A DNA stretch of 64,000 bases from Candidatus Hydrogenedentota bacterium. GTDB taxonomy: Bacteria; Hydrogenedentota; Hydrogenedentia; Hydrogenedentales; JAEUWI01. Shown piece by piece: positions 24,491 to 48,082 of the stretch (position 1 is its first letter; each line of letters begins with the position of its first letter). The position numbers and the translations under genes were made by a program. The notes under the pieces were generated by a model, which was given only the letters and a program-made list of their open reading frames with translations, did not search any database and was not told where the DNA came from. The stretch is taken from positions 64,107-128,106 of the forward strand of contig JAHBVV010000018.1 of the NCBI GenBank assembly GCA_019637335.1. Direction: 5' to 3'.

Positions 24491-24615
24491 GGTCTGGGAC
24501 TCCGGTTGTGTCTGAATGGCGTACGCGCCGGCTCCATGGTACCCGCTTGGCGGTGTGGCTTCCAGTACGCCGCGCGGGACCTCGGCCCTTGACATTGGGA
24601 GCCGGAGCGAACAAA

Positions 24616-25080
24616 ATGGAGGAGGAAGTCTACTATTTCATGTTCAAGCTCTATTCCAAAGGTTGCCAGTACGCGCTGCGGGCGCTTGCCTACGTCGTCA
24701 CCGAACGGGGCAGCGAGCGCTTTCAGATTGCGGAGATCTGCGAAAAGGTCGGGATTCCCGAGCCGTTTACCCGCAAGGTCTTCCAGGATCTCGTGCAGGC
24801 CGGCTTCCTCCATGCCCACCGGGGTCCGGGCGGCGGTTACTCCCTGGCCGAAAGCCCCGACAGGATCTCGCTGCTCGACGTGATACACGCCGTGGACGGC
24901 GAGGACACCTTCAATCACTGCGTCCTCGGGTTCGAGGAATGTGGCAGCGCGCACCCTTGCCCCATGCACTACCGCTGGGCCGAGGCGAAGTCCCAACTGC
25001 TCGACCAGCTTGCGCAGGATACGCTTCAGGATATCGCGGACTTCGCGGCGAAGCGGCTGAAGAACCTGCCCCGAACCTGA
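24616..25080 (+). CDS. Rrf2-family transcriptional regulator (NsrR/IscR-like)
   Basis: YALRALAYV..ERF.IAEICEK.GIPEPFTRKVFQDLVQAGFL...GGGYSLA matches Rrf2 HTH. Three Cys (CxxxxxxC...C) fit a possible Fe-S ligand set. An alternative start at 24640 (MFKL) is possible. Confidence 0.7.
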   Translation: MEEEVYYFMFKLYSKGCQYALRALAYVVTERGSERFQIAEICEKVGIPEPFTRKVFQDLVQAGFLHAHRGPGGGYSLAESPDRISLLDVIHAVDGEDTFNHCVLGFEECGSAHPCPMHYRWAEAKSQLLDQLAQDTLQDIADFAAKRLKNLPRT

Positions 25081-25156
25081 TCGCGCGGGGCCGGATCGCC
25101 CTTTATTTCCGGGTTTTTAGAAGAATGAACCAAGCCATTGACACGGCGCGGCCAAA

Positions 25157-25201
25157 TAGTGGATAATTTGGTCCGGAATAAAGTGGATAAAAAAATCCAC
25201 T
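25157..25201. promoter_or_regulatory. Candidate operator: direct repeat AGTGGATAA x2 and perfect inverted repeat AGTGGAT-N6-ATCCACT in the promoter region of the nar locus
   Basis: tagtggataat at 25157-25167, then agtggataaaaaaatccact at 25182-25201. AT-rich island in an otherwise GC-rich genome, sitting between the Rrf2 gene and the first nar-locus gene. Confidence 0.35.
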
Positions 25202-25241
25202 ATATTGGGCCTGGTCACGGGCCCCATGGAGAGGCAATTTG

Positions 25242-26150
25242 ATGCTTGCGAACCTGCCCCCGCTTCGATTCCGCGGCCGCCGCCTGGCGGCGCTGCTGAT
25301 CGCCGCCGCGCTGGCCCTCCCCTGTGGCGTTGCCGGCGCCCAGGAGACGGCGGCGGAAGCGCCCGCCCCCGAGACGCCCGCTGAAACCGCCGAAGCCGCG
25401 CTCGCGCCGGATGCACCGGCCGCCGCGCCCGAGGACGTGGCGGCGCAGGCCTACGCGACCAAGTGCATGGGCTGCCACACGATTGGCGGCGGGGCCCTCT
25501 CCGGCCCCGACCTCAAACCATCTGCCGCGTGGCCCCGGAAGAACCTCTGGGACGCGATCAAGCGCATGGAGAAGAACGTGGGGCCAATGGCGGATGAGGA
25601 AATCGACCTGCACACCGACTTCCTCCTCGCCGTTGACGCGGCGGAGCGGATCGCTGAGGCGCAGAAGCAGGCCGCGCTCAGGCACGCGGCCACGATGGAA
25701 CCGGCTTCGGCGGATACGGGCCGCGCGCTCTTTCTGGGGCGGACGCCCTTTGCCAATGGCGGGCTTGCGTGCGGCGCGTGCCACCAGGCGGGCGGTCGCG
25801 GCGGATCGCTGGCCTCCTCGCTGGAAGACGCGTTCACGCGGCTGGGCGAGGCCCCGTTGATGGCCGCCTGCGAGTCGCCCGGCTACCCGGTCATGCGGGC
25901 CATGTACCTTGACTCCGCGCAGCCGGTGACCCGGCAGGAAGCGCTTCACGTGGTGAAGTACCTGGAGCAGGTCTCTGGCCAGCCGCAATCCGCGATCAGC
26001 ATCCCGCTGCACCTGCTGGGCGTGTTGGGCGCGGGGGGGACCGTAGTGTTGCTCGCCACCCGTTACAAGAAGACCCCCGGCGGCACGCGGGCGCGTCTCG
26101 TCGCGCGCGCCTGCCGCAAGCAGGACACCGGCCAGGACCAGGGAGTTTAA
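25242..26150 (+). CDS. Membrane-anchored diheme cytochrome c
   Basis: Signal peptide; two CxxCH motifs (CMGCH, CGACH); C-terminal hydrophobic helix; RBS ggagagg. Stop lies 5 nt before the narG ATG. Confidence 0.7.
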   Translation: MLANLPPLRFRGRRLAALLIAAALALPCGVAGAQETAAEAPAPETPAETAEAALAPDAPAAAPEDVAAQAYATKCMGCHTIGGGALSGPDLKPSAAWPRKNLWDAIKRMEKNVGPMADEEIDLHTDFLLAVDAAERIAEAQKQAALRHAATMEPASADTGRALFLGRTPFANGGLACGACHQAGGRGGSLASSLEDAFTRLGEAPLMAACESPGYPVMRAMYLDSAQPVTRQEALHVVKYLEQVSGQPQSAISIPLHLLGVLGAGGTVVLLATRYKKTPGGTRARLVARACRKQDTGQDQGV

Positions 26151-26154
26151 TCGC

Positions 26155-29100
26155 ATGAGCTGGATCAAGGACATATTCGAGCCGGAGGCGCGGGCGTGGG
26201 AAGACTTCTACCGGAACCGCTGGTCCTACGACAAAGTGGTGCGGAGCACCCACGGCGTCAACTGCACGGGGTCGTGCAGCTGGAACATTTACGTTAAGCG
26301 GGGCATCGTCACGTGGGAGATGCAGGCGCTCGACTACCCGATCCTCGATAAGGATATCCCGCCCTACGAGCCGCGCGGGTGCCAGCGCGGCATCTCGTAC
26401 TCGTGGTACATCTACAGCCCGTTGCGCGTGAAGTACCCCTACCTCCGGGGCGCGCTGGCCGATCTCTGGCGCGCGGCGAAGCGAAAGCATCCCGGCGATC
26501 CGGTGGCCGCGTGGCGATCAATCGTGACGGACCCACCGTCCCGCAAGCGCTACCAGCAGGCGCGGGGCAAGGGCGGGTTCCGGCGGAGCACCTGGGAGGA
26601 AGTCGAGGAGATCATCGCCGCGGCCAACCTGTACACCGTCCAGGAATTCGGGCCGGATCGACTCATCGGCTTCTCGCCCATCCCGGCGATGTCCATGATC
26701 AGCTACGCGGCCGGGGCGCGGTTCATGCAGCTCATGGGCGGCGTGGCGCTGTCCTTTTACGACTGGTACTGCGACCTGCCGCCCGCCTCGCCGGAAATCT
26801 GGGGCGAACAGACGGATGTGGCCGAGAGCGCGGACTGGTTCCACTCGAAATTCATCGCGACCGTCGGTTCCAACGTGTTGATGACGCGCACGCCCGACGC
26901 GCACTTCCTGGTGGAGGCGCGGCACCAGGGCGCCAAGGTGGTGGTGTTCTCGCCGGACTTCAGCCAGACCTCCAAGGTCGGGGACGAATGGATCCCGATG
27001 AACCAGGGCCAGGACGGGGCCTTCTGGATGGCGGTGAACCATGTGATCCTGCAAGAGTTTTACGTGAACCGGGAGACCCCGAGCTTCAGCACCTACCTGA
27101 AGGAAAACAGCGACGCGGCATTTCTCGTGCAGCTCGAACCCGACGGGCAGGGCGGCTACAAGCCGGGGGCCTACCTCCGCGCGTCGCAGCTCGCGGAAAC
27201 GAAGGACGAAGAGCTCGCCGAATGGAAAATGTTCGTTCTCGACGAGGAAAACGCCGCGATCCGGCTGCCGGCCGGCCAGGTGGGCCACCGCTGGCAGCAT
27301 ACGAAGGGCCAGTGGCACATCAAGCAGGAGGATTCTCGCACCGGCGAGGCGTTTGAGGCCCGCCTGAGCGTTGCGGGGCTCGGCGAGGCGGTCCCGGTGC
27401 GCTTCAACGACTTCTCCGAGGGCCGGAACGACGTCATCCGGACCCGGCACGTGCCATCGCACACCGTGGAGACGGCGGCGGGGCCGGTGCTGGTCACGAC
27501 GGCCTTCGATCTGCTGCTGGCGCAGCACGGCGTAAACCGGGGCTACGCCGGGGAGTGGCCCGAGAGCTACGACGACGGCGCGCAGCCCTTCACACCGGCC
27601 TGGCAGGAGCCCTACACCGGCATCAAGGCCGCCACGGTCACTCGCTTCGCCCGGGAATGGGCCATCACCGCCGAAAAGACCGGCGGCAAGTGCATGGTGA
27701 TCATCGGGGCGGGGGTGAACCACTGGTACCACAACAACCTGATCTACCGCGCGTGCATCAACGCGCTTCTGCTCTGCGGCTGTGTGGGGAAGAACGGCGG
27801 CGGCTGGAACCATTACGTGGGGCAGGAGAAGCTGGTGCCGCAGGGGTCCTGGGGGCCTATCGCCTTCGGCGCGGACTGGGGCGGCCCGCCGCGCCTGCAG
27901 AACACGCCGTCCTTCCACTACATGCACTCGGATCAGTGGCGCTACGATCGCGCGTTCCGCGAGATGTGCCCGGTGGCGGAAGAAGATCACCCCATGGCCT
28001 CCGGGCATACCGCCGACAAGCAGGCCCTGGCGGTCCGCAGCGGCTGGCTGCCGTGCTTCCCCCAGTTCACGGAGCACAACTTCAAACTGGTGAAGGAAGC
28101 CGAGGAACGCGGGGCCGATCCCGTGGAGCACCTGGTCAACCGCCTCAAGGACCGATCGCTCAAGTTTGCGATGGAGGATCCCGACAATCCCGCGTGCTAC
28201 CCGCGCGTGTGGTACATCTGGCGCGGCAACGCGATCCAGGCGTCCGCCAAGGGGCACGAATACTTCCTGAAACACTACCTCGGCACGCACCACAACACGA
28301 TCGCCGAGGAAGTGGCGAAGGACGATGTCGAGGACGTGGTCTGGCACGACAAGGTCGAGCTGGGGAAGATGGACCTGATCGTCGATTTGAACTTCCGGAT
28401 GGACACGTCGGCGCTGTACTCGGATATCGTGCTGCCGACGGCGTCCTGGTACGAAAAAGACGATCTCAGCTCCACGGACATGCACTCCTTCATCCACCCG
28501 CTCCAGAAGGCCGTGCCCCCGTGCTGGGAATCCCGGAGCGACTGGCAGATCTTCCAGAGCATCGCGAAGAGCACCTCCGAGATGGCGCGGCAGTACCTGC
28601 CGAAGCCGCAGCGCGACATTGTGATCTCCCCGCTGCTCCACGACACGCCCGCCGAAGTCGCGCAGCCGTCCATCAAGGACTGGGCGAAGGGCGAGTGCGA
28701 GCCCATTCCCGGCAAGACCATGCCGAACATTACGGTGGTCGAGCGCGACTACACGAAGGTCTACGAGAAGTTCATCTCGCTCGGCCCGAACTACCGCGAC
28801 AAGGGGTTGGGCATTCACGGCACGGTGTATCAGGTTGACGACGTCTACGACCAGTACCTGACGAACCACCGCACCGAGGAATGGGGTGGCAAGCGCTATC
28901 CATCGCTCCGCGCCGATCGCGACGTTTGCGAGGTGATCCTGCACTTCGCGGCGGAGACCAACGGCGAACTGGCGCACCGCGCGTACGAGGTCGAATCGAA
29001 GAAGACCGGCATCGACCACACGCACCTGGCGCGCGACACGCGGGGGGTGGTGTACAACTTCGACGATCTGTGCACGTCGCCGCGCCGCACGCTGACGACG

Positions 29101-29772
29101 CCGTACTGGACCGGCGTGACGAATGGCGGGCGCACCTACGCCGCGTTCTGCCAGAACGTGGAGGAACGGATTCCCTGGCGGACGCTGACCGGGCGGCAGC
29201 ACCTGTACCTCGACCACGAGGCCTACCGGGCCTATGGCGAGCACCTGCCCACCTTCAAGCCGCGCGCCGACCTGCGCACCACGCGCGACCTGGACTACAC
29301 CGGCGTCGAGCCGGGATCCATGGTGCTGAACTACCTGACGCCCCACGGCAAGTGGCATATCCACTCGACGTTTGGCGACACCCTGCGGATGGAGACGCTC
29401 TCGCGCGGTATCGAGCCCTTCTGGATGAACGACAACGACGCGGGCCTGATCGGCGTGCACGACAACGACTGGGTCGAGGTTATCAACGACCACGGGACGG
29501 TGGTCACGCGCGCCTGCGTGAGCGCGCGCATCCCGCGCGGCATCTGCTTCATTTACCACGCCACCGAGCGGACGGTGGGCGTGCCGAAATCGCAGCACCG
29601 GAAGCGCCAGCGCGGCGGCGCGCACAACAGCCTTACGCGCGCCCGGCTCAAACCGCTCTTCATGATCGGCGGCTACGCCCAGTTCAGCTACGCCTTCAAT
29701 TACTGGGGCCCCCAGGGCGTTAACCGGGACACCTTCGTGATCGTGCGAAAAATCGACAAGCCGGCCTGGTAA
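26155..29772 (+). CDS. narG: Respiratory nitrate reductase alpha subunit (NarG-type, cytoplasmic orientation; no Tat motif)
   Basis: N-terminus [33 protein letters not shown] matches the NarG FS0 cluster-binding signature (H-x3-C-x3-C). 1205 aa. Confidence 0.9.
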   Translation: [1205 protein letters not shown]

Positions 29773-29797: not shown

Positions 29798-31294
29798 ATG
29801 GATGTACGCGCACAGGTCTCCATGGTGTTCCATCTGGACAAGTGCATCGGCTGCCACACGTGCAGCCTGGCCTGCAAGAACCTGTGGACCGAGCGCCCCG
29901 GCGCGGAGTACATGTGGTGGAACAACGTGGAAACCAAGCCCGGCACGGGCTATCCCACGCTGTGGGAGGACCAGCTGAACTACAAGGGCGGCTGGGAGGT
30001 GAATGAGAAGCGCGAGCTCGTGCTCAAGAGCCAAAGCCGGGGCGGCGCGTTCCACAAGCTCTTCTACAACCCGAACCAGCCCGGGCTCGACGACTATTAC
30101 GAACCGTGGACCTACCGCTACAGCGATTTGTTTGATGCGCCGGAGGGCCACGACCAGCCAACGGCGCGGCCCATCTCCCAGATCACCGGCGAGCCGATGG
30201 ACATCGAGGCCGGCCCGAACTGGGACGACGACCTGGGCGGCTCCCCGATCTACGCGGAGAACGATCCCAACCTCGCCGGGCTTACGGAAGACGAGCGCCA
30301 GGCCCTGTTCGATGTCGAGAGCATCGCCATGATGTATCTCCCGCGCATCTGCAACCACTGCGCGAATCCGAGTTGCGTGGCCTCCTGCCCCTCCGGCGCG
30401 CTCTACAAGCGCGGCGAAGACGGGATTGTCCTCGTCAACCAGGACAAATGCCGCGGCTGGCGCGCGTGCGTCGCGGCCTGCCCGTACAAGAAGGTGTACT
30501 ACAACTGGCAGACCGGGAAGTCGGAGAAATGCATACTCTGCTACCCGCGCATCGAGACCGGCCAGCCCCCCGCCTGCTTCCACTCCTGCGTCGGGCGGAT
30601 CCGGTACATGGGCGTGCTGCTGTACGACGCGTCCCGGATGGAAGACGCGATGAAGGCGCCGGAGAAGTCCCTGGTGGAGGCCCAGCGCGCGCTGCTGCTC
30701 GACCCGAACGACCCCGAGGTTATCGCGGGCGCGCAGCGCAACGGCATCAGCGAGCAATTCGTGCGGGCGGCGCAGGAATCCCCGGTGTGGAAGTACGTGA
30801 TGGAATGGAAGCTCGCGCTTCCGCTGCACCCCGAGTTCCGGACCATGCCTATGCTGTATTACGTGCCGCCGCTCCTGCCGGTTTCGGGGCGAAGCGGCGA
30901 CGGCATCTACGAGCAGGATTCCGACGAATTCTTCACGCACCTCGAAAAGTCGCGGCTCCCCGTGAAGTACCTCTCCCGGCTCTTCAGCGCGGGCAACGAG
31001 GGTATTATCCGCGCGGTGATGAAGCGGCAGATGGCCGTGCGCTATTTCAAGCGCGCGCAGGACGTCAGCGATGTGGACTCGGCGCGGGTGGACGCGGTGC
31101 TCCGGGAGGCGCACCTTACGGCGGAACAGGCCGAGGCCATCTACCAGATGACCGCGCTGGCGCCGATGAGCAGCCGCTACGTGATGCCGCCCATCCAGCG
31201 GGAGGAAGCCATCGAGGCCACCGGCTGTTCGCCGCAGCAATGCCGGGGACAGTGCGGGCTCGGCGTGGCGGCCGAACCGAAGCGGGGCGCCTGA
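29798..31294 (+). CDS. narH: Respiratory nitrate reductase beta subunit
   Basis: MVFHLDKCIGCHTCSLACKNLWT, almost identical to the E. coli NarH N-terminus. Four Cys clusters. Confidence 0.9.
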   Translation: MDVRAQVSMVFHLDKCIGCHTCSLACKNLWTERPGAEYMWWNNVETKPGTGYPTLWEDQLNYKGGWEVNEKRELVLKSQSRGGAFHKLFYNPNQPGLDDYYEPWTYRYSDLFDAPEGHDQPTARPISQITGEPMDIEAGPNWDDDLGGSPIYAENDPNLAGLTEDERQALFDVESIAMMYLPRICNHCANPSCVASCPSGALYKRGEDGIVLVNQDKCRGWRACVAACPYKKVYYNWQTGKSEKCILCYPRIETGQPPACFHSCVGRIRYMGVLLYDASRMEDAMKAPEKSLVEAQRALLLDPNDPEVIAGAQRNGISEQFVRAAQESPVWKYVMEWKLALPLHPEFRTMPMLYYVPPLLPVSGRSGDGIYEQDSDEFFTHLEKSRLPVKYLSRLFSAGNEGIIRAVMKRQMAVRYFKRAQDVSDVDSARVDAVLREAHLTAEQAEAIYQMTALAPMSSRYVMPPIQREEAIEATGCSPQQCRGQCGLGVAAEPKRGA

Positions 31295-31295
31295 C

Positions 31296-31841
31296 ATGGT
31301 CGCGGCGCCCCGGACTATCGACATGTACACCGCACTGGCGGATTTCCTTGCCTACCCGGAAGCGGATGATCGCGCCGATCTGACCGCGTGGTCCGACTAC
31401 GTGCGCGACGAGTTTCCTGCCGCCTCGACGCACCTCGATCGCTTTCTGCGCGAGACCGAGCACCTGAGCGCCGAGGAGCTTCAGGAAATCTACACGCGCG
31501 CCTTTGACGTGGCCCCGCAGTGCGTCCCCTATCTCAGCGTGTATCTCTTCGGCGCGGAGAGTTTCAAGCGCGCGGAACTGATGGCCGGCCTGAAGGAGGT
31601 GTACGAGCGTGCGGACCTCGACTGCGGCCAGGAGCTGCCGGATCACCTGGCGGTGGTGCTGCGCTGCGCCGCCGCGTTCAGCCACGAAGAATGGAATGAA
31701 TTGATGGGCTGGTGCGCGCCCGGGCCGATCAAGGCGATGATCGCCGGCCTGAAGCAGGCCTCCAGCCCCTATCTTCACGTGCTGCTTGCCATCCGTCACG
31801 TGTTGCAGACCCAGTATCCCCGGGAGTTCGCGTCATGCTAG
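31296..31841 (+). CDS. narJ: Nitrate reductase molybdenum cofactor assembly chaperone
   Basis: Position between narH and narI; NarJ-like acidic helical protein (181 aa). Start overlaps the narH stop region. Confidence 0.75.
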   Translation: MVAAPRTIDMYTALADFLAYPEADDRADLTAWSDYVRDEFPAASTHLDRFLRETEHLSAEELQEIYTRAFDVAPQCVPYLSVYLFGAESFKRAELMAGLKEVYERADLDCGQELPDHLAVVLRCAAAFSHEEWNELMGWCAPGPIKAMIAGLKQASSPYLHVLLAIRHVLQTQYPREFASC

Positions 31842-33154
31842 ACCAGTTTCTCTTCGTCGGCCTGCCCTACATCGCGCTGTTCGTGCTGGTGGCCGGATCA
31901 ATCTGGCGGATCCGCCGGCATCCCTTCAGCGTCTCTTCGCTCAGCTCCCAGTTTCTCGAAGGGCGACAGTTGAAGTATGGATCGCTCCCCTTCCACCTGG
32001 GCATTCTGATTATTCTCGTCGGGCACGTCATCCCCATCCTGCTTCCGGGAATCTGGCAGGCCCTCATGGGCGTGCCCGTGCTCCTGATCAGCGTCGAAGT
32101 CATCGGCATGATCGCCGCGTTCCTGGCGTTGTTCGGGCTCGGCGTGCTCCTCTACCGGCGTCTCACCTCCGCGAAGATACAGGCGGTCACTACGCCGGCG
32201 GACCTGGCCGTGCTCGGGCTGCTCATTGCGCAGGTGCTCGTGGGCATCGGCGTAGCCGGCGGCCACCGCTGGGGCGCGGCGTGGTCCACGGGCACGACGA
32301 CGCCATACCTCTGGAGCCTGGTCGCGTTTCAGCCGCGCACGGATCTCGTGGCCAGCCTGCCGCCGACGGTCAAGCTGCACCTCGCGCTGGCGTGGGTCAT
32401 TCTGCTGCTCATTCCCTTCACGCGGCTGGTTCACCTCTTCACCTTCCCGCTCTCCTACCTCTGGCGCCCGCCCATCAAGGTCGTCTGGACGAATCCCCGC
32501 CGCTTTGCGTATGTGCCCGAGCCGGTGCGGCAGGCGGCGGACAGCCGCCGCTACTTCGTGCGCGGGGCCGCCGGTGTCGGCGCGGCGGGCGTGCTGCTCT
32601 CGGCGGGGGTGCTGGACAAGCTCGGGCGTTTCTTCCAGGGCGCGCGGATGTCGAGCGAGGCGGAGGCGGAACTGCTCGCGAAGAAGCTGGAGCGCCTCGA
32701 ACTGGCGGCGAAGGAGCGCGAACTGGAGCTCGAGCGGATCAATAGCGCGTACATTCACGTGGCGCGCCTCGGCGAGCTCAGCGAAAAGGACGGTCGGTAC
32801 TTCACCGACTACGAGATGCGGCCGGCCCTCGCCTTCCGCGATGAAAACGGCCTGCCGCTGCTCATATCGGCGAAATGCACGCACCTGGGCTGCACCGTGG
32901 CCAGCACGCTCGACGCGGACAGGCGGCTCCTCTGCCCCTGCCACGTGTCCTACTTCGACGTGCGCACCGGCCAGCCGAATCCCGGCGCGCCCGCCAAGGC
33001 CCCCCTGCCGCGCATCGGCTGGGTGCTGATGGACGCCGCCGGCGATATCGTGGCGAGCCAGGGCCCGGACGGGCCGGTTCAGGGCGCGCCCGACCCCGAA
33101 AAACTGGACAGCTACGGCGTATTCATCGCCCGGCGCATGGAGGAACTGGCCTGA
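31835..33154 (+). CDS. narI: Nitrate reductase gamma subunit (NarI) fused to a C-terminal Rieske [2Fe-2S] domain
   Basis: The N-terminal 230 aa match the NarI 5-TM diheme-b fold (FHLGILIILVGH, HRWGAAWSTG...). Then SRRYFVRGAAGVGAAGVLLSAGV, a Tat-like motif plus TM. Then CTHLGCTV...CPCHVSYFD, Rieske boxes I and II. ATG overlaps narJ by 7 nt. Confidence 0.7.
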   Translation: MLDQFLFVGLPYIALFVLVAGSIWRIRRHPFSVSSLSSQFLEGRQLKYGSLPFHLGILIILVGHVIPILLPGIWQALMGVPVLLISVEVIGMIAAFLALFGLGVLLYRRLTSAKIQAVTTPADLAVLGLLIAQVLVGIGVAGGHRWGAAWSTGTTTPYLWSLVAFQPRTDLVASLPPTVKLHLALAWVILLLIPFTRLVHLFTFPLSYLWRPPIKVVWTNPRRFAYVPEPVRQAADSRRYFVRGAAGVGAAGVLLSAGVLDKLGRFFQGARMSSEAEAELLAKKLERLELAAKERELELERINSAYIHVARLGELSEKDGRYFTDYEMRPALAFRDENGLPLLISAKCTHLGCTVASTLDADRRLLCPCHVSYFDVRTGQPNPGAPAKAPLPRIGWVLMDAAGDIVASQGPDGPVQGAPDPEKLDSYGVFIARRMEELA

Positions 33155-34260
33155 TGAGCGGTAACGAACGGGTACAGGCCCTCGGAACCTGGCTATACGA
33201 ACGCGTGCCCCTGCACAAGCTGAATTTCGAGGACATGCTGAAGAAGAAGGAGGTGCCGGTTCACCGGATGAGCTGGGCCTACTACCTGGGCGGCCTGGCG
33301 CTCCTTTTCTTCGGGATCCAGGTTGTCACGGGGCTGATGCTGCTCTTCTACTACCAGCCGACCGTCGCGGACGCCCATGCGTCGGTGGAGTTCATCACGA
33401 AGCACGTCAGCGGCGGCGCGCTCATCCGCAACCTGCACACGTGGTCGTCCTCGGGGATGATCCTGTGCGTGCTGGCGCACCTGCTCACGACCTTCGCCAT
33501 GAAGGCCTTCGAGAAGCCGCGCGAAGCGCTGTGGGTTTCCGGCGTGCTCCTGCTGATCGTGACCTTCGGGTTCGGGTTCACCGGCTATCTGCTGCCGTGG
33601 CACCAGATCGCGGTCAACGCCACGAAGGTCGGCATGCAGTCGATCGAAGAAGTGGGAGCGTACCTGCCCGGGGCGCTCTCGGAACTGCCCGCCCGGGCGA
33701 AAGAGTTGATCCAGGGCGAAAAGGCCGTGGGCCAGGCAACGCTCAGCCGCTTCTACGCGCTCCACGTGGTCGTGCTGCCGCTGGTGGCCTTCATGATCCT
33801 GGGGCTGCACCTGCTGCTGGTTCAATTGCACGGCATGAGCCAGGGGGTCGACCGGCCCACCGGGAAGACCGAGCGCTTCTTCCCGTTGTTTGTGCTCAAG
33901 GACTTCTCGCTCTGGGGCATGGTGTTTCTGGTCGTCTTCGTGTTCGCGCTGTGCCTGCCCTTCGAGGCCTTCTTCTCCTATCCCCTCTTCGAGCCCTTCG
34001 ATCCGATGGGGTCGACCCCCGACGGCATTAAGCCGGAGTGGTACTTCTTCTTCGTGTACTACCCGCTGGAGCTGCTGCCCTTCTGGCTGGTGATGATCGT
34101 GACCAACGGCGTGCTCGCGATGCTGCTGCTGGCCCCATGGATCTTCCGGGGCACACAACGCAAGACCCTCGGCTGGATCGCCGCGGCGGCGGGCGCCTAC
34201 CTCGTGATTATCACCATCTTCGGACAGTCCATATACGAGTTTCTGAAAGGAGCCCACTGA
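33154..34260 (+). CDS. Cytochrome b (bc1/b6-type)
   Basis: MSWAYYLGG...FGIQVVTGLMLLFYYQP...RNLHTWSSSGMILCVLAHL...GYLLPWHQI is the diagnostic cytochrome b N-terminal domain. ATGA overlap with the narI-Rieske stop; ggagga RBS. Confidence 0.8.
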   Translation: MSGNERVQALGTWLYERVPLHKLNFEDMLKKKEVPVHRMSWAYYLGGLALLFFGIQVVTGLMLLFYYQPTVADAHASVEFITKHVSGGALIRNLHTWSSSGMILCVLAHLLTTFAMKAFEKPREALWVSGVLLLIVTFGFGFTGYLLPWHQIAVNATKVGMQSIEEVGAYLPGALSELPARAKELIQGEKAVGQATLSRFYALHVVVLPLVAFMILGLHLLLVQLHGMSQGVDRPTGKTERFFPLFVLKDFSLWGMVFLVVFVFALCLPFEAFFSYPLFEPFDPMGSTPDGIKPEWYFFFVYYPLELLPFWLVMIVTNGVLAMLLLAPWIFRGTQRKTLGWIAAAAGAYLVIITIFGQSIYEFLKGAH

Positions 34261-34874
34261 TGCGTCAGGCAACGCCACAATGGGCGCGCGGAATCGCCGC
34301 CCTGGCCCTGGTGTGGGCCGGCCCCGCGCTCGCCTACCCCGAGTTCGAGGCCTACGTCGAAAAAGTCTCCGGCATGCCCGTGAACTGCAGCCTGTGCCAC
34401 ACCCACCCGGATGGCCCCGAGGGCCTGAAACCGGGACAGATCGGCAGCCTGAAGCCGGCGGATCTGGAACGGCACAACCGCGCGCGCGCGGCGTTTGAGC
34501 CGGGCCAGGCGGTGGACAGCCCGATTCTCAACGAATTCGGCAACTTCCTGATCGAGCAACTGGGGAAGACCCGCTTCCTCCAGATGCGGCTGGAGCCGGA
34601 AACGCTGGCCGACGCGATACCCGCGGACAGCGATCTAGATGGCGACGGGGTGACCGACCGCGCCGAGTACCTCGCCGGAACGCACCCGCTCGACCCGCAC
34701 CACGGGCCGCCGTGGCAACTCTTCTGGATCAACTTGAAGCGCAAGTTTTTCCACGTCGTCATGATCGCCGTCGCCACGGCCCTCGGCCTCTACGGGCTCA
34801 ACAACCTGCTGCGCGGGTTCGAGCTGCTCGGCGGCGCGCCAGGAGACGGGGACGATCCACAACAGCCTACCTGA
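34260..34874 (+). CDS. Membrane-anchored monoheme cytochrome c
   Basis: Signal peptide MRQATPQWARGIAALALVWAGPALA; single CSLCH; DSDLDGDGVTDRAEY calcium-binding-like loop; C-terminal TM helix. ATGA overlap with the cytochrome b stop. Confidence 0.6.
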   Translation: MRQATPQWARGIAALALVWAGPALAYPEFEAYVEKVSGMPVNCSLCHTHPDGPEGLKPGQIGSLKPADLERHNRARAAFEPGQAVDSPILNEFGNFLIEQLGKTRFLQMRLEPETLADAIPADSDLDGDGVTDRAEYLAGTHPLDPHHGPPWQLFWINLKRKFFHVVMIAVATALGLYGLNNLLRGFELLGGAPGDGDDPQQPT

Positions 34875-34907: not shown

Positions 34908-36446
34908 ATGAACGAGTCCCCCAAAGCCTATGTCGTGCTGGCGATGAACACGATCGCCTTTACCGTCTGCTTTGCGTGCTGGATGATGAACGGGGTTCTG
35001 GTCACCTTTCTGGTGGAGAACCAGGTGTTTGCGTGGAGCGAATCGCAGGTCGGGTGGCTGATCGGCATTCCGGTCCTCAGCGGATCGATCCTGCGGCTGC
35101 CGGTCGGGATCCTGACGGACAAGTATGGCGGCAAGCCGGTCTATACCGTAGTGATGCTGATCTCCGCGGTTCCGATGTATTTTCTGAGCTACGCGGATTC
35201 CTACCTGTCGTTCCTGTTGCTCAGCCTCGGCTTCGGGATCGCGGGAACCTCCTTTGCCGTCGGTATTGCGTATTCGTCGGTCTGGTTCAAGAAGGAGCAC
35301 CAGGGCACGGCGCTGGGGATCTTTGGCGCGGGCAACGCGGGGGCGGCGGTGACCAGCATGGGCGCGCCTTTTCTCCTGCGCTGGCTGACGGGCGGTGGCG
35401 AGAACGTGGAGGCGTGGCGGGCCATGCCGCGGATCTACGCCGGCGTGCTGGTCGCCATGGCGGTGCTGTTCCTGCTCTTTACGGTCCACAAGAAGGTGGA
35501 CGATTCGCATATCACCAGTTTTCGAGCGCGCCTCGCCCCGCTGCGCTACATGCGCGTCTGGCGCTTCGGCCTGTACTACTTTCTCGTCTTCGGCGGCTTC
35601 GTGGCGATGGCGCAATGGCTCATCCCGTACTACGTGAACGCCTACATGATGCCGCTCGCGACGGCGGGTCTGATGGCGGCGATCTTCAGCCTGCCATCCG
35701 GGGTTATCCGCGCGCTCGGCGGGTACATGTCCGACCGGTGGGGCGCCCGGCGTGTGATGTACTGGGTGCTCGCCTCCTGTCTCATCTGCTGCTCGCTGCT
35801 GGTCGCGCCGCGCATGGAGCTGGAATCGCCGGGGAAGGGGATCATGGCGAAGCGCGCCGGCGTGGTGACGTCGGTCTCCGAGGAGGCGATTGTCGTGGGC
35901 GAAACGCGGTACCCGCTCCGCACGGCGGAAGGGAAATCGCTTACGGACGCGCAGAAGCATGACGGGGTGCTCGTGTGGCCCACGTTTGCGATGTGGCAGG
36001 AGCCCGTGGTGGCGCCGGGCGACGACGTTGTGAAGAAGGAGCTCCTCGCGCGCGGGGTCACGCGGGTGTACTTCCAGGCGAACGTATGGATCTTCACGGG
36101 GCTGGTTTTCATTGTCGGGATCATGATGGGGATCGGGAAGGCGGCGGTCTACAAGCACATCCCCGACTACTTCCCGCGCGAGGTGGGGGTGGTGGGCGGC
36201 ATCGTCGGCGTGCTCGGGGGTCTGGGCGGGTTCATCTGCCCGATTATTTTTGGATACCTGCTCGAACGCACGGGGATTTGGACCACCTGCTGGCTCTTTT
36301 TTGCCGTGCTGTCCGGGATTTGTCTGTGGTGGATGCACCGGGTCGTCCAGCGGATGCTGCACGAGGCGGCGCCGGAGCTGATCGGCCACATTGAAGACTT
36401 GGAACACGCACGGGAACAGCAGCGCTACGGGCGCGGCGCAACCTGA
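34908..36446 (+). CDS. narK: MFS nitrate/nitrite transporter (NarK family) with an about 100-aa insert after the TM6-TM7 region
   Basis: The G-x3-D-x2-G-x-R-like motifs and overall 12-TM MFS pattern resemble NarK. A central soluble insert (residues about 300-400) is atypical. Confidence 0.75.
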   Translation: MNESPKAYVVLAMNTIAFTVCFACWMMNGVLVTFLVENQVFAWSESQVGWLIGIPVLSGSILRLPVGILTDKYGGKPVYTVVMLISAVPMYFLSYADSYLSFLLLSLGFGIAGTSFAVGIAYSSVWFKKEHQGTALGIFGAGNAGAAVTSMGAPFLLRWLTGGGENVEAWRAMPRIYAGVLVAMAVLFLLFTVHKKVDDSHITSFRARLAPLRYMRVWRFGLYYFLVFGGFVAMAQWLIPYYVNAYMMPLATAGLMAAIFSLPSGVIRALGGYMSDRWGARRVMYWVLASCLICCSLLVAPRMELESPGKGIMAKRAGVVTSVSEEAIVVGETRYPLRTAEGKSLTDAQKHDGVLVWPTFAMWQEPVVAPGDDVVKKELLARGVTRVYFQANVWIFTGLVFIVGIMMGIGKAAVYKHIPDYFPREVGVVGGIVGVLGGLGGFICPIIFGYLLERTGIWTTCWLFFAVLSGICLWWMHRVVQRMLHEAAPELIGHIEDLEHAREQQRYGRGAT

Positions 36447-36456: not shown

Positions 36457-38070
36457 ATGGCGGCCTTGAGACAATGGGAGCCGGAAGACGAGGCCTTCTG
36501 GAAAAATGGCGGCAGCGCGATCGCGCAACGCAACCTCTGGATATCGATCCCGAACCTGCTCCTGGGCTTCGCGGTCTGGATCCAGTGGAGCGTGATCATC
36601 GGGCTCATGCAGGGGGCGCACGACACGAATCCGGACCTGTACAACTTCACCTTTGGCAATGATGGACAGCCGCTTTCCGGCGAGGCCTACAAGGCCCTGC
36701 TCTACACCTTGCCGGCGGTCGCGGGGCTTGCGGGCGCAACGCTGCGCATTCCCAATTCCTTCATGATCGCGATATGCGGCGGTCGCAACGTCAAGGCGCT
36801 GACCACGCTGCTGCTTATCCTGCCGGCGCTCGGCGCGGGCCTGGCGCTGCGAAATCCCGATACCCCGTTTCTCATGTACATCCTCCTCGCCGCGCTCTCC
36901 GGCGTGGGCGGCGGCGCCTTCGCGTCGTCCATGTCCAACATCAGCTTTTTCTTTCCACGGCGCATGCAGGGCCTCTCGCTGGGGCTGAATGCGGGCCTGG
37001 GCAATCTCGGCGTGGCCGTCATGCAGCTTTCCGTGCCCCTGGTGATTACGATCGGTATCTTCGGCGGCCCTTCGCAGGCGCTCGACGGCAATCCCGTCTG
37101 GATTCAGAACACCGGGCTGGTCTGGGTTCCGGTGCTGGCCTTTTTTGCCGTGGTCGCGTGGTTTGGCATGCACAACCTGCCGCAACACGACTGCGGATCG
37201 GCACTGTCCGCCGCCGGGCGCTTCCTGTGGCTCGAACTGCTCGGTTTTGTCGGGGCCGCGGTGGCTATCGTGCTCCTGCTGCTCCCCTGGGGGGGCGTGC
37301 CGGAGCTGCTGAAGATTCTGGTGGTGTTGATCGTCGCCGTGCTGGTGACGCTGGCCTGCATGCGCTACCTAACGCCCGCGCAGACCCAGGCGCGCCTCGT
37401 CAGCCAGTTCGGCATCTTCAAGAACAAGCACAACTGGATCATGACCTACCTCTATGTCATGACCTTCGGATCCTTCATCGGCTACTCGAACGCGTTTCCG
37501 AAGTTGCTCAAGGATGTCTTCGGTTACATCCGCGTGGATGAGGCCGGCCAGCCGCTGGCGGAAGCCATCGTCAATCCGAACGCGCCGAACATCCTGAAGT
37601 ACGCGTTCCTGGGCGCCGCCATGGGCGCGGCGATTCGACCGATTGGCGGCTGGCTGTCCGACAAGTTCGGCGGCGCGCGCGTGACGCACTGGGACACGAT
37701 CGTTATGATCGCGAGCGCCGTGGCCTGCGGGTATGTCGTGAGCCAGGCGAACGTCTCGCCGCAACCCGAGAAGTACTTTGCGGCGTTCCTGGCGATATTC
37801 ATCCTGCTCTTCGCCACCACCGGGATCGGCAACGGATCGACCTTCCGGATGATCGCGGTAATCTTCTCGCGGGAACAGGCCGGCCCCGTGCTGGGGTGGA
37901 CCTCCGCCATCGCGGCGTACGGCGCGTTCCTGATTCCCAATGTGTTCGCGAGCCAGATCAAGGCCGGCACGCCGCAGTACGCCATGTACGGCTTCGCGAT
38001 CTACTACGTGACCTGCCTTGCGCTGAACTGGTGGTACTACGCACGCAAGGGGGCCGAGGTGAAGTGCTGA
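36457..38070 (+). CDS. narK: MFS nitrate/nitrite transporter, NarK2-like
   Basis: 12-TM MFS; conserved NarK motifs GGAFASSMSNISFFFP...G; tandem with the upstream narK. Confidence 0.75.
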   Translation: MAALRQWEPEDEAFWKNGGSAIAQRNLWISIPNLLLGFAVWIQWSVIIGLMQGAHDTNPDLYNFTFGNDGQPLSGEAYKALLYTLPAVAGLAGATLRIPNSFMIAICGGRNVKALTTLLLILPALGAGLALRNPDTPFLMYILLAALSGVGGGAFASSMSNISFFFPRRMQGLSLGLNAGLGNLGVAVMQLSVPLVITIGIFGGPSQALDGNPVWIQNTGLVWVPVLAFFAVVAWFGMHNLPQHDCGSALSAAGRFLWLELLGFVGAAVAIVLLLLPWGGVPELLKILVVLIVAVLVTLACMRYLTPAQTQARLVSQFGIFKNKHNWIMTYLYVMTFGSFIGYSNAFPKLLKDVFGYIRVDEAGQPLAEAIVNPNAPNILKYAFLGAAMGAAIRPIGGWLSDKFGGARVTHWDTIVMIASAVACGYVVSQANVSPQPEKYFAAFLAIFILLFATTGIGNGSTFRMIAVIFSREQAGPVLGWTSAIAAYGAFLIPNVFASQIKAGTPQYAMYGFAIYYVTCLALNWWYYARKGAEVKC

Positions 38071-38916: not shown

Positions 38917-39840
38917 TTACCGGGCGGCAGCGCCCAGCAGATCCTTCAGTGCGCCGGCCAGGTCCGGGTAGGCGAATTCATAGCCGGATTCCAACAATCG
39001 CACCGGAATAACCCGCCGGCTCTTCAGGACGAGCTCCGTTTCCGTCCGGATAATGGTCGCGCCCGCCTCCAGGAGCCACGTGGGCAGCGGCAGCCCCAGA
39101 GGCATCCCGCAGGCGCGGCGCAATGCGTGCATGAACTCGGCGTTCAACACCGGGGCGGGCGCCGCCAGGTTAACCGTGCCCGCGATCGTTTCGTGGCGGA
39201 TAATGTGATCCGCCATCCGCGCGAAATCCGCCTCGTGCAGCCAGCTTACGTACTGCCGGCCATTTCCCTGGCGCCCGCCGACACCAAGCCGCGCGAGCAC
39301 CCGCATCGGCGTCAAGGCCCCGCCGCCCCGCCCCAGAACGATCGCGGTGCGCAGCGCAACCCGGCGCACGGTTCCTGGTATGGGCGCATCGAAGAACGTT
39401 TGCTCCCAGCGCTGGCAGACTTCCACTGAAAACCCTTCGCCGATCTCTCCGGTCGGCTCGTCCATGTTCCGGTCTTCCGCATGGCGGTATATTGTTCCCG
39501 AGGATGCGTTCATCCACAGCCGGGGCGGATGGGCGCAGGCCGCCACGGCCTCCGCGAGCATCCGTGTGGATTCCAGGCGTGAACTGTATATTGCCCTCCG
39601 GTTTGCTTTCGTGTAGCGGCAGTCCACCGACTTCCCGCTCAGGTTGATCAGCACAGCCGCGCCCTCCAGGTGCGCTGCCCACGGTCCGGGAGTTCTCCCG
39701 TCCCAGGCGAGCACGCCGCCCGGTCCCCGCGCATGACCGGGCCGGCGAGTGAGTGTGTATACCTCGTGGCCCGCCTCCGTGAAATAGCGCCGAAGCACCT
39801 GGCCCAGGAATCCACTTCCGCCCGCGACGACAAGCTTCAT
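38917..39840 (-). CDS. Epimerase-family protein (SDR39U1/YfcH-like NAD-dependent epimerase with DUF1731 C-terminal domain)
   Basis: N-terminal VAGGSGFLG Rossmann motif. 307 aa, the typical length for this family. ATGA overlap with the upstream TetR gene. Confidence 0.65.
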   Translation of the reverse strand: MKLVVAGGSGFLGQVLRRYFTEAGHEVYTLTRRPGHARGPGGVLAWDGRTPGPWAAHLEGAAVLINLSGKSVDCRYTKANRRAIYSSRLESTRMLAEAVAACAHPPRLWMNASSGTIYRHAEDRNMDEPTGEIGEGFSVEVCQRWEQTFFDAPIPGTVRRVALRTAIVLGRGGGALTPMRVLARLGVGGRQGNGRQYVSWLHEADFARMADHIIRHETIAGTVNLAAPAPVLNAEFMHALRRACGMPLGLPLPTWLLEAGATIIRTETELVLKSRRVIPVRLLESGYEFAYPDLAGALKDLLGAAAR

Positions 39841-40532
39841 CGCCCATCCTCCGCCGCCGGGGCCGCGCTTGTGGCGAGCTCCACAATGCGCGCGGCGGCC
39901 TGGCTGATTCCGCCCATGAAGGGCAGTGCGGTGGCCTGGATGAGTTTCTGGATCAGCCCGAGGCTCACGGAAATCAACTCCCGGGTGCGTTGCTGGTTGG
40001 CGGAGGCGTCGTTCACCCAGAACAGAATGACGCCCATCTGGTAGAGCCAGAGGATGCGCGCCAGGTGCGGGCGGATTACCGCGTTGGCCTTCAGGTTGCT
40101 CCCCTCCAGCGCCTGCTCGATCAGCGCGATGGCTTCGTCGCGCACGGGCTTGGTGTTCGGGCTGAACGGGGAAAGCGGGTGGCTCCAGTCCGCCGCGTGC
40201 CGCGCGAGCACGGTGGTCAGGGCGCGAAACGGGGCCATCTGCGCGAGCTTGAACTCGATCAGGGCCGCCATGCGCTGCTGAAAATCCTTCGAGGCCGCCA
40301 CAATCTCCCAGTTGTGATCCCGGGCCTCCGCGCCGGTGTGCGCGTAAAAGTGCAGCACGAGTTCGTCTTTCGTGCGGAAGTAGTAGTAGGCGGCGCCCAG
40401 GGACATGCCCGCCTCGCTGGCGATCATGCGCATGGTGGTCTTGTCGAAGCCATGGGTTTGGAAGAGTTCCAGGGCGGTGGCGAGGATATGGGACTGGGTG
40501 GCTTCGCTCTTGGCGGTTTTTTTGGGGGGCAT
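39837..40532 (-). CDS. TetR/AcrR family transcriptional regulator
   Basis: N-terminal ILATALELFQTHGFDKTTMRMIASEAGMSLGAAYYYFRTKDEL is the TetR HTH signature. Confidence 0.75.
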   Translation of the reverse strand: MPPKKTAKSEATQSHILATALELFQTHGFDKTTMRMIASEAGMSLGAAYYYFRTKDELVLHFYAHTGAEARDHNWEIVAASKDFQQRMAALIEFKLAQMAPFRALTTVLARHAADWSHPLSPFSPNTKPVRDEAIALIEQALEGSNLKANAVIRPHLARILWLYQMGVILFWVNDASANQQRTRELISVSLGLIQKLIQATALPFMGGISQAAARIVELATSAAPAAEDGR

Positions 40533-40668: not shown

Positions 40669-41277
40669 TTACTCCTGCTTCGCCTTCATCGGGTTCGGGT
40701 GCTCGATGATTTTCACCGCCTGCTCGTAGTCGAAGCCGGCCTTGGAGCCGTCTTCCTTCGTGTATTTTTCAGGATCCCAGGTGGGGCTTTCTTCATTGTG
40801 GCACTGGAGGCAGAGGGACTCCTCGACTTTCAGGAGGTTCGCCATCCAGTCGACCTCCTCCGAAGTTTTCTTCTTGAACATGACGTCCTTGCCTTCGGCG
40901 ACGTGGAATTCGCCGGGGCCGTGGCAGGTTTCGCACTGGACGCCCATTTCGGGCTTAATCTTTGCCGGCGCGGCCATGGCCTGGAAGTCGTAGGCCGTGA
41001 CGTGGCACTTGAGGCACTCGGGGGCTTCGTGCGGGGGCTTGGTCATGCCGCGCTCCTGCGCGACCTTCAGCGCCGCCTCGCTCTTGAGGTTTTCGAAGGC
41101 CTTGGAGTGTTTCTCCGCCTTCCAGGCGGTGAACTGGGCGCCTTCGGGCTTCTTGTCGTGGCAGACCTTGCACTGATCCGCGCCAATGTACTCGGGTTTC
41201 TTGTCCTGGGCGTGCGCGACGCCCGCAGCCAGCATCAGAGCGACCGCGCCGATGAGACCTTTACGGAAGAATTGCAT
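40669..41277 (-). CDS. Periplasmic tetraheme cytochrome c
   Basis: aaggagg RBS; signal peptide; four CxxCH (CKVCH, CLKCH, CETCH, CLQCH); 202 aa. Confidence 0.75.
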   Translation of the reverse strand: MQFFRKGLIGAVALMLAAGVAHAQDKKPEYIGADQCKVCHDKKPEGAQFTAWKAEKHSKAFENLKSEAALKVAQERGMTKPPHEAPECLKCHVTAYDFQAMAAPAKIKPEMGVQCETCHGPGEFHVAEGKDVMFKKKTSEEVDWMANLLKVEESLCLQCHNEESPTWDPEKYTKEDGSKAGFDYEQAVKIIEHPNPMKAKQE

Positions 41278-41415
41278 GGTACCTCCTTCAATTTCTGATT
41301 TTTGTCCTGGCAATGCGTGGCTGCCCGCGCAATACCTCCAAGTATAGCGCACATTCACCGCGCGCGAAACTTTTTTGTGCGCGAACCCCGCGAACTGGAC
41401 GCGGGACGGCGCGAA

Positions 41416-44222: not shown

Positions 44223-44248
44223 GTGCCGGTGTGCCGGCGTTTGCGCGA

Positions 44249-45316: not shown

Positions 45317-45401
45317 GTTCCCTCGCCGATCCAACCCGTTTCTCCGCCCGCCCAGCAGCCGCCGGAGACTACGCTGGCGTATCCCGGTCTTGCGGCATTG
45401 G

Positions 45402-45604
45402 CTGTCTGGCGCCAGACAGTAAGCAATCTTGTTGCCAACTCCCGAACGGAGTGGCGCTTGGTTCCCAATGGCGTTCACGCTAGCACGAACGCGCGAGCAA
45501 GTCAAACAAAACTACCTTGCGAAACGAACCGATCTGGTGTAAGGTGGAGCAGTAACCGGCGCACTACTGTGCAATTGAGCAGGCGCCGGGTGTTCAATTG
45601 AACA
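45402..45604. promoter_or_regulatory. Divergent promoter region of the cytochrome cluster with two perfect palindromes
   Basis: ctgtctggcgccagacag (45402-45419; 18 nt) and tgttcaattgaaca (45591-45604; 14 nt). Both lie in the about 600-bp intergenic gap between the minus-strand octaheme operon and the plus-strand decaheme gene. Confidence 0.3.
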
Positions 45605-48003: not shown

Positions 48004-48082
48004 TCGCGGGATTCGCCAGTATAATCAGTAGTACGGGTCGCGGGGAAGGTGGTAGTACCGAGCCGCCTTCCCCGCGGCATCC

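Follow-up and report, generated by a model that had tools for sequence, protein, structure and literature searches.

The question raised by the locus described here is why the membrane subunit of a respiratory nitrate reductase should carry a Rieske [2Fe-2S] domain, and what such a protein could do for the cell that makes it. The locus lies in a 64-kb stretch of contig JAHBVV010000018.1 (GCA_019637335.1), called the window below, from a Candidatus Hydrogenedentota metagenome-assembled genome (MAG). There, a single gene encodes the gamma subunit NarI joined to a Rieske domain (NarI::Rieske), and genes for a cytochrome b and a small cytochrome c follow it. In the textbook NarGHI enzyme, energy is conserved by the redox loop only, with 2 H+ per 2e-. 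An earlier note on this DNA had proposed that the fusion belongs to a Nar-bc assembly coupling nitrate reduction to a Q cycle or, alternatively, that the module runs in reverse as a nitrite oxidoreductase (Nxr). We find that the fusion is real and under selection, and that it probably ties nitrate reductase and a bc-type complex into one machine, which may give the cell more energy per nitrate.

The NarI::Rieske fusion is real and recurs across bacterial genomes

Both Pfam domains are encoded by one uninterrupted open reading frame (ORF; Table 1) of 439 amino acids (aa), as the earlier note had read it. The exact protein is found at NCBI as MBX3179221.1, annotated as 'respiratory nitrate reductase subunit gamma' only; because current pipelines name such fusions 'nitrate reductase subunit gamma', the feature is hidden. 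A homologue search over 5.8 billion proteins returned 794 hits, and the best 120 clusters (90% identity) were examined. All of these were 436-480 aa long, contained both domains and showed 56-97% identity, and the fusion clusters came from four independent data sources (NCBI, JGI, ENA and Logan assemblies).

A tblastn scan using one genome per species matched the protein full-length at 15 loci, with spans ranging from residues 1-433 to 1-439. These loci are labelled Hydrogenedentota, Planctomycetota, Calditrichaeota, Blastocatellia and 'Alphaproteobacteria', with two unclassified bacterial MAGs besides. The order narC-G-H-J-(I::Rieske)-cytb-c, with narI encoded after narG, narH and narJ, is kept in 15 of 15 where the contig reaches, as is narK, and the same order recurs in seven further loci, one of them verrucomicrobial.

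Residue conservation was read from an alignment of 71 fusion homologues taken from the best 120 clusters. Residues flanking or near the junction between the domains (Y208, R211, W218, R238 and R239) are invariant, and R222 and R223 are conserved in 90% or more of the sequences. As the junction is conserved across all 71, it is not the product of sequencing error. A frameshift or lost stop codon, for which the earlier note had suggested checking, is refuted by the continuous frame together with the 120 clusters, the 15 genome loci and this junction.

The earlier note had called the combination unusual. That word applies with restrictions: no NarI::Rieske fusion was found in 72,556 plasmid records and cultured model organisms lack the design, yet MAGs often carry it. 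No description of a NarI-Rieske fusion was found in the openly searchable full-text literature.

Predicted topology places the Rieske head in the periplasm

The NarI part scores 205.8 bits against the Pfam family PF02665 (cut-off 22.9) and 127.6 bits against the NCBIfam narI equivalog TIGR00351 (cut-off 105.55). Its haem ligands H54, H64, H182 and H200, which correspond to H56, H66, H187 and H205 of E. coli NarI, are invariant in the 71 homologues. In an AlphaFold2 (AF2) model this part matches E. coli NarI (1Q16 chain C) with a TM-score of 0.80. In the model as a whole, the NarI fold is followed by a long sixth transmembrane (TM) helix, then by another helix and by a Rieske domain predicted with confidence (predicted local distance difference test score, pLDDT, about 90); overall pLDDT is 82 and the predicted template modelling score 0.51, with unreliable relative placement of the domains. 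At 439 aa, the protein does not fit the description of a stand-alone NarI, which has ~225 aa and a cytoplasmic end after TM5.

In the quinol-site region there is no basic residue at the position of E. coli Lys86, and Glu88 is invariant. The Gly63-His64/Glu88 signature is common to the fused NarI and the free-standing NarI of Thermus. The Lys86 region is present in E. coli, Paracoccus and Burkholderia. Because Lys86 is absent from free-standing Thermus and actinobacterial NarI too, its absence marks a subtype and gives no ground for exclusion from NarI; it was dropped as a sign of a lost NarI quinol site or of a Q-cycle route.

Beyond the junction the protein continues into the twin-arginine (RR) motif and TM segment that the earlier note had pointed out, here SRRYFVR followed by TM6. 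The family-wide consensus is (E/D)SRRxF(L/V)(K/R), and R238 and R239 are invariant. TM6 is a Gly/Ala-rich, weakly hydrophobic helix with the least favourable insertion energy of the six: rough sums on the Hessa scale, which is approximate and position-independent, give +4.8 for TM6 (family median +4.1) and -2.1 to +1.9 for TM1-5. The charged helix that leads from TM6 to the Rieske head also occurs in unfused Rieske relatives.

The Rieske part carries both cluster boxes, CTHLGC at aa 348-353 (32876-32893) and CPCH at aa 367-370 (32933-32944). C348, H350, C353, C367, C369 and H370 are invariant in the 71 sequences, two of them being the bc-type disulfide cysteines. The nearest solved structures are the Thermus Rieske protein and the arsenite oxidase subunit AioB. 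Among profile models, Pfam Rieske alone passes its cut-off; the NCBIfam bc1, b6f and QcrA Rieske models reach 23-40 bits against cut-offs of 95-275.

The C-terminus of E. coli NarI is cytoplasmic (structure 1Q16). With the same orientation here, TM6 would carry the Rieske head across to the periplasm, in which the heads of bc-type Rieske proteins act, and the predicted arrangement of 5+1 helices is internally consistent. A cytoplasmic Rieske domain, with TM6 not spanning the membrane, is unlikely given the invariant twin-arginine consensus and the use of the same segment as an N-terminal signal anchor by unfused relatives.

Hand-over of a protein from Sec to the twin-arginine translocation (Tat) system is driven by an RR motif, a last helix of low hydrophobicity and the positive charges that follow it (Keller 2012 PMC3471235; Tooke 2017 PMC5449189). 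The fusion carries all three, namely an RR motif before the last TM helix, the low hydrophobicity of TM6 and K/R residues after it (median 2 in the family). Judged from these features, export of TM6 and the Rieske domain would depend on Tat. Known dual Sec/Tat proteins (three-TM QcrA, five-TM Sco3746 and polyferredoxins) likewise combine an internal RR, a weak last helix with charges and a C-terminal cofactor domain. The fusion differs from them in having 5+1 helices and in that its Sec-inserted part is the dihaem subunit of another enzyme, and the 2017 survey of such proteins (PMC5449189) does not include its family.

The nar half is of the Thermus type

All seven products of the Thermus narCGHJIKT cluster have counterparts in the window, in the same order. 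Identities to the Thermus proteins are 45% for NarC (haem domain), 60% for NarG, 60% for NarH, 37% for NarJ, 42% for NarI, 43-48% for NarK and 37-40% for NarT, and NarI shares Glu88 and a TPYLWS motif with its Thermus counterpart. The narC gene, the dihaem cytochrome c gene that the earlier note had placed before narG, ends 4 nucleotides (nt) upstream of narG; its product has CxxCH motifs at aa 76 and 178 and a TM helix at aa 255-273. The only homologues of narC in the plasmid records are Thermus narC genes. By sequence, the window NarC is the orthologue of Thermus NarC, which binds NarI and links the NarI haems to periplasmic partners (PMC7694296).

NarG matches E. coli NarG over its full length (1268 bits) and keeps the FS0 motif HGVNCTGSC. 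Its start, MSWIKDIFEPE, has no RR motif and no Tat signal. The earlier note's view of a cytoplasm-facing NarG therefore stands, and its 'classical' narGHJ is more specifically the Thermus narCGHJIKT subtype.

Along the operon the intergenic distances range from -7 to +33 nt, with 25 nt between narG and narH. The cytochrome b and small cytochrome c genes each share one base with the upstream neighbour (TGATG), and narJ overlaps narI by 7 nt; the 4-nt ATGA overlaps of the earlier note were misread. NarI is not followed directly by narK and narT, since the Rieske domain and the genes for cytochrome b and small cytochrome c lie between. The ORF of the second transporter opens at TTG 36391, with ATG 36457 the likelier start.

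A gene for an Rrf2-family regulator lies directly upstream of the operon. NCBIfam places it in the Rrf2 superfamily only, and its product shares 59% identity with the regulator encoded ahead of narC in a related locus (L023). A promoter and terminator scan found no more sites in the region than in shuffles, and an Rfam scan of 20000-42000 for a riboswitch or other RNA gave no match.

Table 1. Features of the nar operon and of the downstream multihaem cytochrome cluster (positions in the window)
Feature	Position	Strand	Evidence
Rrf2-family (Fe-S type) regulator	24649-25080	+	Pfam Rrf2, E 2.7e-33; start codon uncertain (ORF 24508-25080)
Promoter-like site TTGACA-18-GATAAT in regulator-narC gap	25138-25167	+	11/12 consensus matches; consensus match only
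narC, periplasmic dihaem cytochrome c	25239-26150	+	Signal peptide, CMGCH and CGACH, C-terminal TM anchor, Pfam cytochrome c
narG, cytoplasm-facing catalytic subunit	26155-29772	+	NCBIfam narG equivalog, 1535 bits (cut-off 1084)
narH, iron-sulfur subunit	29798-31294	+	Pfam Fer4_11 and Nitr_red_bet_C
narJ, chaperone	31296-31841	+	Pfam Nitrate_red_del, 1e-13; overlaps narI
NarI::Rieske fusion gene, 439 aa	31835-33154	+	ATG 31835, TGA 33152-33154, no internal stop
NarI domain, aa 1-218, five TM helices, two haem b sites	31835-32488	+	Pfam Nitrate_red_gam aa 3-218, E 8.1e-61
Cytoplasmic junction, NarI TM5 to Tat motif, aa 219-235	32489-32539	+	Continuous frame; R222, R223 nearly invariant
Internal twin-arginine motif D-S-R-R-Y-F-V-R, aa 236-243, and TM6, aa 242-260	32540-32614	+	R238/R239 invariant
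Charged periplasmic helix, aa 274-303, TM6 to Rieske head	32654-32743	+	AF2 helix, block-mean pLDDT 79-88
Rieske [2Fe-2S] domain, aa 306-439	32750-33154	+	Pfam Rieske aa 308-391, E 1.9e-7, 31.3 bits (cut-off 20.3)
Cytochrome b, 368 aa	33154-34260	+	Pfam Cytochrome_B 1.4e-40, Cytochrom_B_C 8e-5
Small monohaem cytochrome c, 204 aa	34260-34874	+	Signal peptide, single CSLCH, C-terminal TM anchor
narK-type nitrate/nitrite transporter, major facilitator superfamily	34908-36446	+	Pfam MFS_1; weak NCBIfam NarK match, 186 bits (cut-off 311.7)
narT-type second nitrate/nitrite transporter	36457-38070	+	NarK/NarU family matches, 269 and 301 bits, both under cut-offs
c554-like cytochrome	40669-41358	-	Multihaem cluster
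c7/c3-like cytochrome	41416-42549	-	Multihaem cluster
763-aa protein	42549-44840	-	Within multihaem cluster; no Pfam match
MtrC/MtrF-like protein, 690 aa	45931-48003	+	Multihaem cluster
NapC/NirT-like protein	48083-49558	+	Multihaem cluster

Neighbouring genes in relatives encode Rrf2 regulators, ScdA/hemerythrin proteins, CRP/FNR regulators, molybdenum cofactor (Moco) biosynthesis enzymes and NarK-type transporters. In a verrucomicrobial locus (L025/L026, 13088-19987), the operon is followed directly by moaA, moaD, moaE, moeA, mobA, moaC/B and a molybdate transporter, and a gene for a SLAC1/TehA-type anion channel stands in the place of narK; in a divergent relative (L034, 12968-18649) a smaller Moco gene set follows directly. 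The flanks of L035, L036 and L037 hold recurring genes for ScdA_N/hemerythrin (iron-centre repair) or hemerythrin-only proteins, extra Rrf2 regulators and a CRP/FNR regulator, which points to regulation by anoxia and by NO or nitrosative stress. No nir, nor, nos or nrf gene was found within 10 kb in the Pfam-annotated nar-type contexts (L023, L025/L026, L034-L037) or among the scanned genes of the window; the operon thus covers by itself every step from quinol oxidation to nitrate reduction, and nitrate/nitrite transport as well.

The bc half is a module that also exists on its own

The N-terminal half of the cytochrome b is b6-like and the C-terminal half, fused to it, resembles subunit IV. 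Seven TM helices are predicted for the protein, and its best match in the Protein Data Bank (PDB) is spinach cytochrome b6 (3e-46). Its haem histidines lie at 95/109 and 204/219, with b6-type spacing on helix D, and a PEWY motif is found at aa 294-297. The earlier note's assignment to the bc1/b6 type, followed by a monohaem cytochrome c with a single CSLCH, is thus borne out. The haem ci/cn cysteine of b6 is replaced by tyrosine (YYLGG versus YCLGG in b6), and two haems are therefore expected. Like the Rieske part, the cytochrome b reaches the cut-off of no curated equivalog model. Its second-ranked NCBIfam hit, at 183 bits (cut-off 290), is ExtP, which serves as b-type cytochrome in an operon for selenite/tellurite reduction; this hints that b6-like cytochromes of this kind have been recruited to several anaerobic reductase systems. 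The cytochrome b gene starts at the last base of the fusion stop codon, an adjacency that is conserved across loci.

A profile-free search with aa 230-439 of the fusion returned 17 clusters only (50% identity) at E <= 1e-30, in three groups: NarI-fused proteins, unfused proteins of 224-229 aa, and the protein P0134. The unfused proteins (P0132, P0137 and P0138) begin with the same unit of RR motif, TM helix, helix and Rieske domain. In P0134, a NarC-like haem domain with its own anchor stands in the place of NarI. Unfused and cytochrome c-fused versions are encoded in loci of the form (c)-Rieske-cytb-small c (L027, L029 and L028), with a cytochrome b of 369-370 aa, and no nar genes were found in loci of this type within the available sequence. 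Because the trio of Rieske protein, cytochrome b and small cytochrome c exists alone elsewhere, we conclude that the bc half is a separate module, with a NarC-like cytochrome c domain as its usual companion, that entered a nar operon of the Thermus type and became fused to NarI.

Two variants show other partners of this module. In L028 (10001-12995, NCBI GCA_964400165.1), which encodes P0134, a fusion of a monohaem NarC-like cytochrome c domain and its TM anchor to the RR-TM-Rieske unit is followed by cytochrome b and small cytochrome c, with nosZ and an Rrf2 regulator gene within 10 kb. In L032 (7149-12947) and L033 (JGI 3300013125 / 3300013138), the genes for NarI::Rieske, cytochrome b and small cytochrome c come after one for a 918-aa protein in which at least seven NarC-like haem domains are strung together; here the proximal-haem histidine of NarI (E. 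coli H205) is Tyr and the small cytochrome c has CAMCR for CxxCH. As NarC-like domains accompany this bc subfamily (P0134, L032), the carrier of the bc output would be a protein that sits on NarI.

In a rough neighbour-joining tree of cytochrome b, built without support values or outgroup, unfused modules are interspersed among fused ones, a pattern compatible with a fusion that is ancestral, that arose repeatedly or that was later split.

The small cytochrome c belongs to an undescribed family

The family of the small cytochrome c has 431 members, all annotated as 'hypothetical'. The only Pfam signal for the protein is a sub-threshold, TSP3-like one to a Ca-loop-like DxDxDG segment, and the protein has no PDB relative by sequence or by fold; its model (pLDDT 89) is all-alpha. 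Immediately behind the predicted signal-peptidase site (AxA) stands a nearly invariant Y-P-E-F, with the CxxCH 17 residues further on. The family has no conserved Met, and no conserved His besides H49, beside the proximal His. In cytochrome f, the haem is ligated by the N-terminal amine. The mature N-terminus of the small cytochrome c recalls this arrangement in sequence, on an unrelated all-alpha fold. No homology to cytochrome c1 or cytochrome f was found, and the protein is best described as an orphan subunit, c1-like in role, of a previously undescribed family.

Other genes in the window

Two further features of the window lie apart from the operon. A single 2972-aa ORF at 8473-17391 (-) consists almost wholly of TPR repeats, and a group at 55931-62325 (-) looks like a carotenoid-type cluster, with two flavin amine-oxidase/phytoene-desaturase-like genes, a polyprenyl synthase and a lycopene cyclase.

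A proposed tethered Nar-bc complex and its alternatives

On this solidly established architecture we build an energetic hypothesis. Since NarI and the Rieske protein form a single polypeptide, the two complexes are tethered, and they may form a Nar-bc supercomplex in which Q-cycle electrons enter NarI and NarGH by way of the small cytochrome c and/or NarC. We hold this possibility tentatively, at slightly less than even confidence. The five NarI helices would be inserted through Sec/YidC and the weakly hydrophobic TM6, following SRRxF(L/V)(K/R), would be handed over to Tat, which would export the folded [2Fe-2S] domain to the periplasmic side for docking at the Qo site of the neighbouring cytochrome b. 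Quinol would be oxidised at Qo. The high-potential electron would then pass from the Rieske cluster through the haems of small cytochrome c and/or NarC to NarI haem bD and haem bP, and from there through the NarH clusters to the NarG Mo and to nitrate in the cytoplasm, while the low-potential electron would be recycled through the b haems to the Qi site. The charge yield would be ~4 per 2e-, versus 2 for a plain NarGHI redox loop.

The association of Streptomyces coelicolor Nar1 with a bcc complex offers a functional precedent by analogy: Nar1 needs, and co-purifies with, the bcc-aa3 supercomplex, and electron transfer from a c haem to haem bD with 4 H+ per 2e- has been proposed (PMC7931247). 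Three points favour coupling through the Q cycle over modules that merely stand side by side, namely the tether itself, the presence on NarI of the usual cytochrome c partner, and the lack of nir, nor, nos or nrf genes nearby. The Nar-bc assembly of the earlier note accordingly gains support from the conserved operon and the NarC orthology; its coupling to a Q cycle is a step that we infer. A more far-reaching version, which we consider doubtful, is that of a widespread, genetically tethered supercomplex running from quinol through Qo, Rieske, orphan cytochrome c, NarC, NarI and NarGH to nitrate, in which the charge per nitrate would be doubled, NarI::Rieske would found a new 5+1-helix class of dual Sec/Tat proteins, and the mature N-terminus of the small cytochrome c (at the AxA-YPEF boundary) would possibly be a haem ligand.

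Several observations weigh against such coupling. NarI has all its haem ligands and the Thermus quinol-site signature, unchanged from Thermus NarI, and may oxidise quinol directly, in which case the Q cycle would be bypassed. The bc trio occurs without Nar (L027, L029, L028), so that Nar is not required as its acceptor, and L032/L033 carries NarI::Rieske-cytb-c without narGHJ within 10 kb. In Thermus the proposed direction of flow is from NarI to NarC and then outwards, to Nir and Nor (PMC7694296). Electrons from c haems, which typically have the higher potential, would have to move uphill locally to reach NarI haem bD, and other acceptors may be encoded outside the 64-kb window.

The two halves might instead be co-assembled and work in parallel, with NarI feeding NarGH and the bc Q cycle passing its electrons, by way of small cytochrome c and NarC, to other periplasmic or outer acceptors; multihaem cytochromes or the reductases for nitrite, NO or N2O would be examples. 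The fusion would then serve 1:1 co-expression and co-assembly only, within a nitrate/denitrification respirasome. The unaltered NarI, the bc trio as a stand-alone quinol:cytochrome c module and the outward direction proposed for Thermus speak for this arrangement, as does the cytochrome c::Rieske version near nosZ (L028). The window also holds a multihaem cytochrome cluster (40672-49555) 6-15 kb downstream of the operon, behind a TetR regulator gene (39837-40532). This cluster may encode a module for extracellular electron transfer, and the c-haem electrons could end up there instead. However, none of the nar-type contexts examined has a nir, nor, nos or nrf gene within 10 kb, a covalent tether has no obvious use if the halves exchange no electrons, and once bc-reduced NarC sits on NarI, flow to nitrate would be downhill overall. 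We regard the parallel arrangement as rather unlikely, and return to a tethered complex coupled to nitrate as the better account.

The reverse role, in which nitrite would be oxidised in the cytoplasm as in Nitrobacter, electrons would leave through NarI and NarC, and the tethered Rieske/cytochrome b unit would pass them on or drive reverse flow into the quinone pool, is improbable. One point in its favour is that the verrucomicrobial version of the operon has a SLAC1/TehA-type channel gene, as the Nitrobacter cluster has a similar one. Against it, nxrX lies between the alpha and beta subunit genes in Nitrobacter, and the 25-nt gap between narG and narH leaves no room for an nxrX-like gene. 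Rieske or cytochrome b genes are not known from the Nitrobacter cluster. NarG exceeds the narG equivalog cut-off and shares 60% identity with the nitrate reductase of Thermus, which has been studied experimentally. The Rrf2, ScdA/hemerythrin, CRP/FNR and Moco neighbours are typical of anaerobic nitrate respiration and nitrosative stress, and the scanned genes of the window include none for a terminal oxidase or for carbon fixation. Also in favour of an Nxr-like role, the cluster resembles that of Nitrobacter in having NarG/H/J/I-like genes after a c-type cytochrome, as in Thermus, and a cytoplasm-facing site (PMC7694296), and within the cytoplasmic NarG/NxrA clade the direction of catalysis is unreadable from sequence (PMC10732223). 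Taken together, the neighbouring genes, the NarG identity and the missing nxrX give this proposal of the earlier note little support.

That separate narI and Rieske genes were joined by an assembly or annotation error is vanishingly improbable, since the unfused Rieske proteins of the subfamily (P0132, P0137 and P0138), which might suggest it, sit in loci without nar genes, and the continuous frame, the like length and domains of clusters from four sources, the full-length loci and the conserved junction all stand against it.

Relation to known systems

The operon product would work like Streptomyces Nar1-bcc, to judge by analogy, and is built from a Thermus-type Nar and a bc module. It resembles the Thermus thermophilus NarCGHI system (narCGHJIKT) gene by gene, with a dihaem, periplasmic NarC that has a C-terminal anchor in both. 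Thermus NarI, however, ends after TM5 (225 aa) and is followed by narK, whereas the window NarI runs on to the Tat motif, TM6 and the Rieske domain, and two extra genes, for cytochrome b and small cytochrome c, precede narK. In Thermus, Nar has been proposed to replace the bc complex; in the window, a bc complex is attached to Nar.

In haloarchaeal pNar, NarG is exported by Tat and faces outwards, and there is no NarI. The pNar operon (NarGH, Rieske NarB, cytochrome b NarC) is like the window in combining Rieske and cytochrome b genes with a nitrate reductase. The archaeal type is ruled out here, since NarG lacks a Tat signal and NarI is present; the window also encodes NarK transporters.

S. 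coelicolor Nar1 is a cytoplasm-facing NarGHI dependent on a Rieske/cytochrome b complex (Falke et al. 2021, PMC7931247). There, the genes are unlinked, the proteins are separate, and the association is weak or transient and includes an aa3 oxidase, whereas the window has a covalent link and a single operon that contains no oxidase genes. A bc-type complex has also been recruited to nitrate respiration, with a Q cycle adding energy, in the nap cluster of Caldithrix abyssi (PMC5317091) and in the Qcr-dependent Nap of Campylobacter (PMC6195509), but those systems serve the periplasmic Nap, without NarI and without a described fusion of reductase and bc subunits.

Implications for nitrate respiration

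That a bc complex can supply electrons to a cytoplasm-facing Nar is an idea supported until now by indirect evidence, obtained with Streptomyces spores. A gene that fuses NarI to a Rieske protein speaks for two partners whose association is fixed, physically as well as functionally, and here both the fusion and the whole operon are conserved in genomes labelled with at least five phyla. The operon is a compact, defined set of seven respiratory genes that can be expressed and measured. It brings with it an undescribed cytochrome c family, and NarI::Rieske provides a new test case for the hand-over from Sec to Tat. If the Q-cycle route is true, current models would underestimate the growth yields on nitrate of many uncultured anaerobes, among Hydrogenedentota, Planctomycetota, Acidobacteriota, Verrucomicrobiota and Calditrichota.

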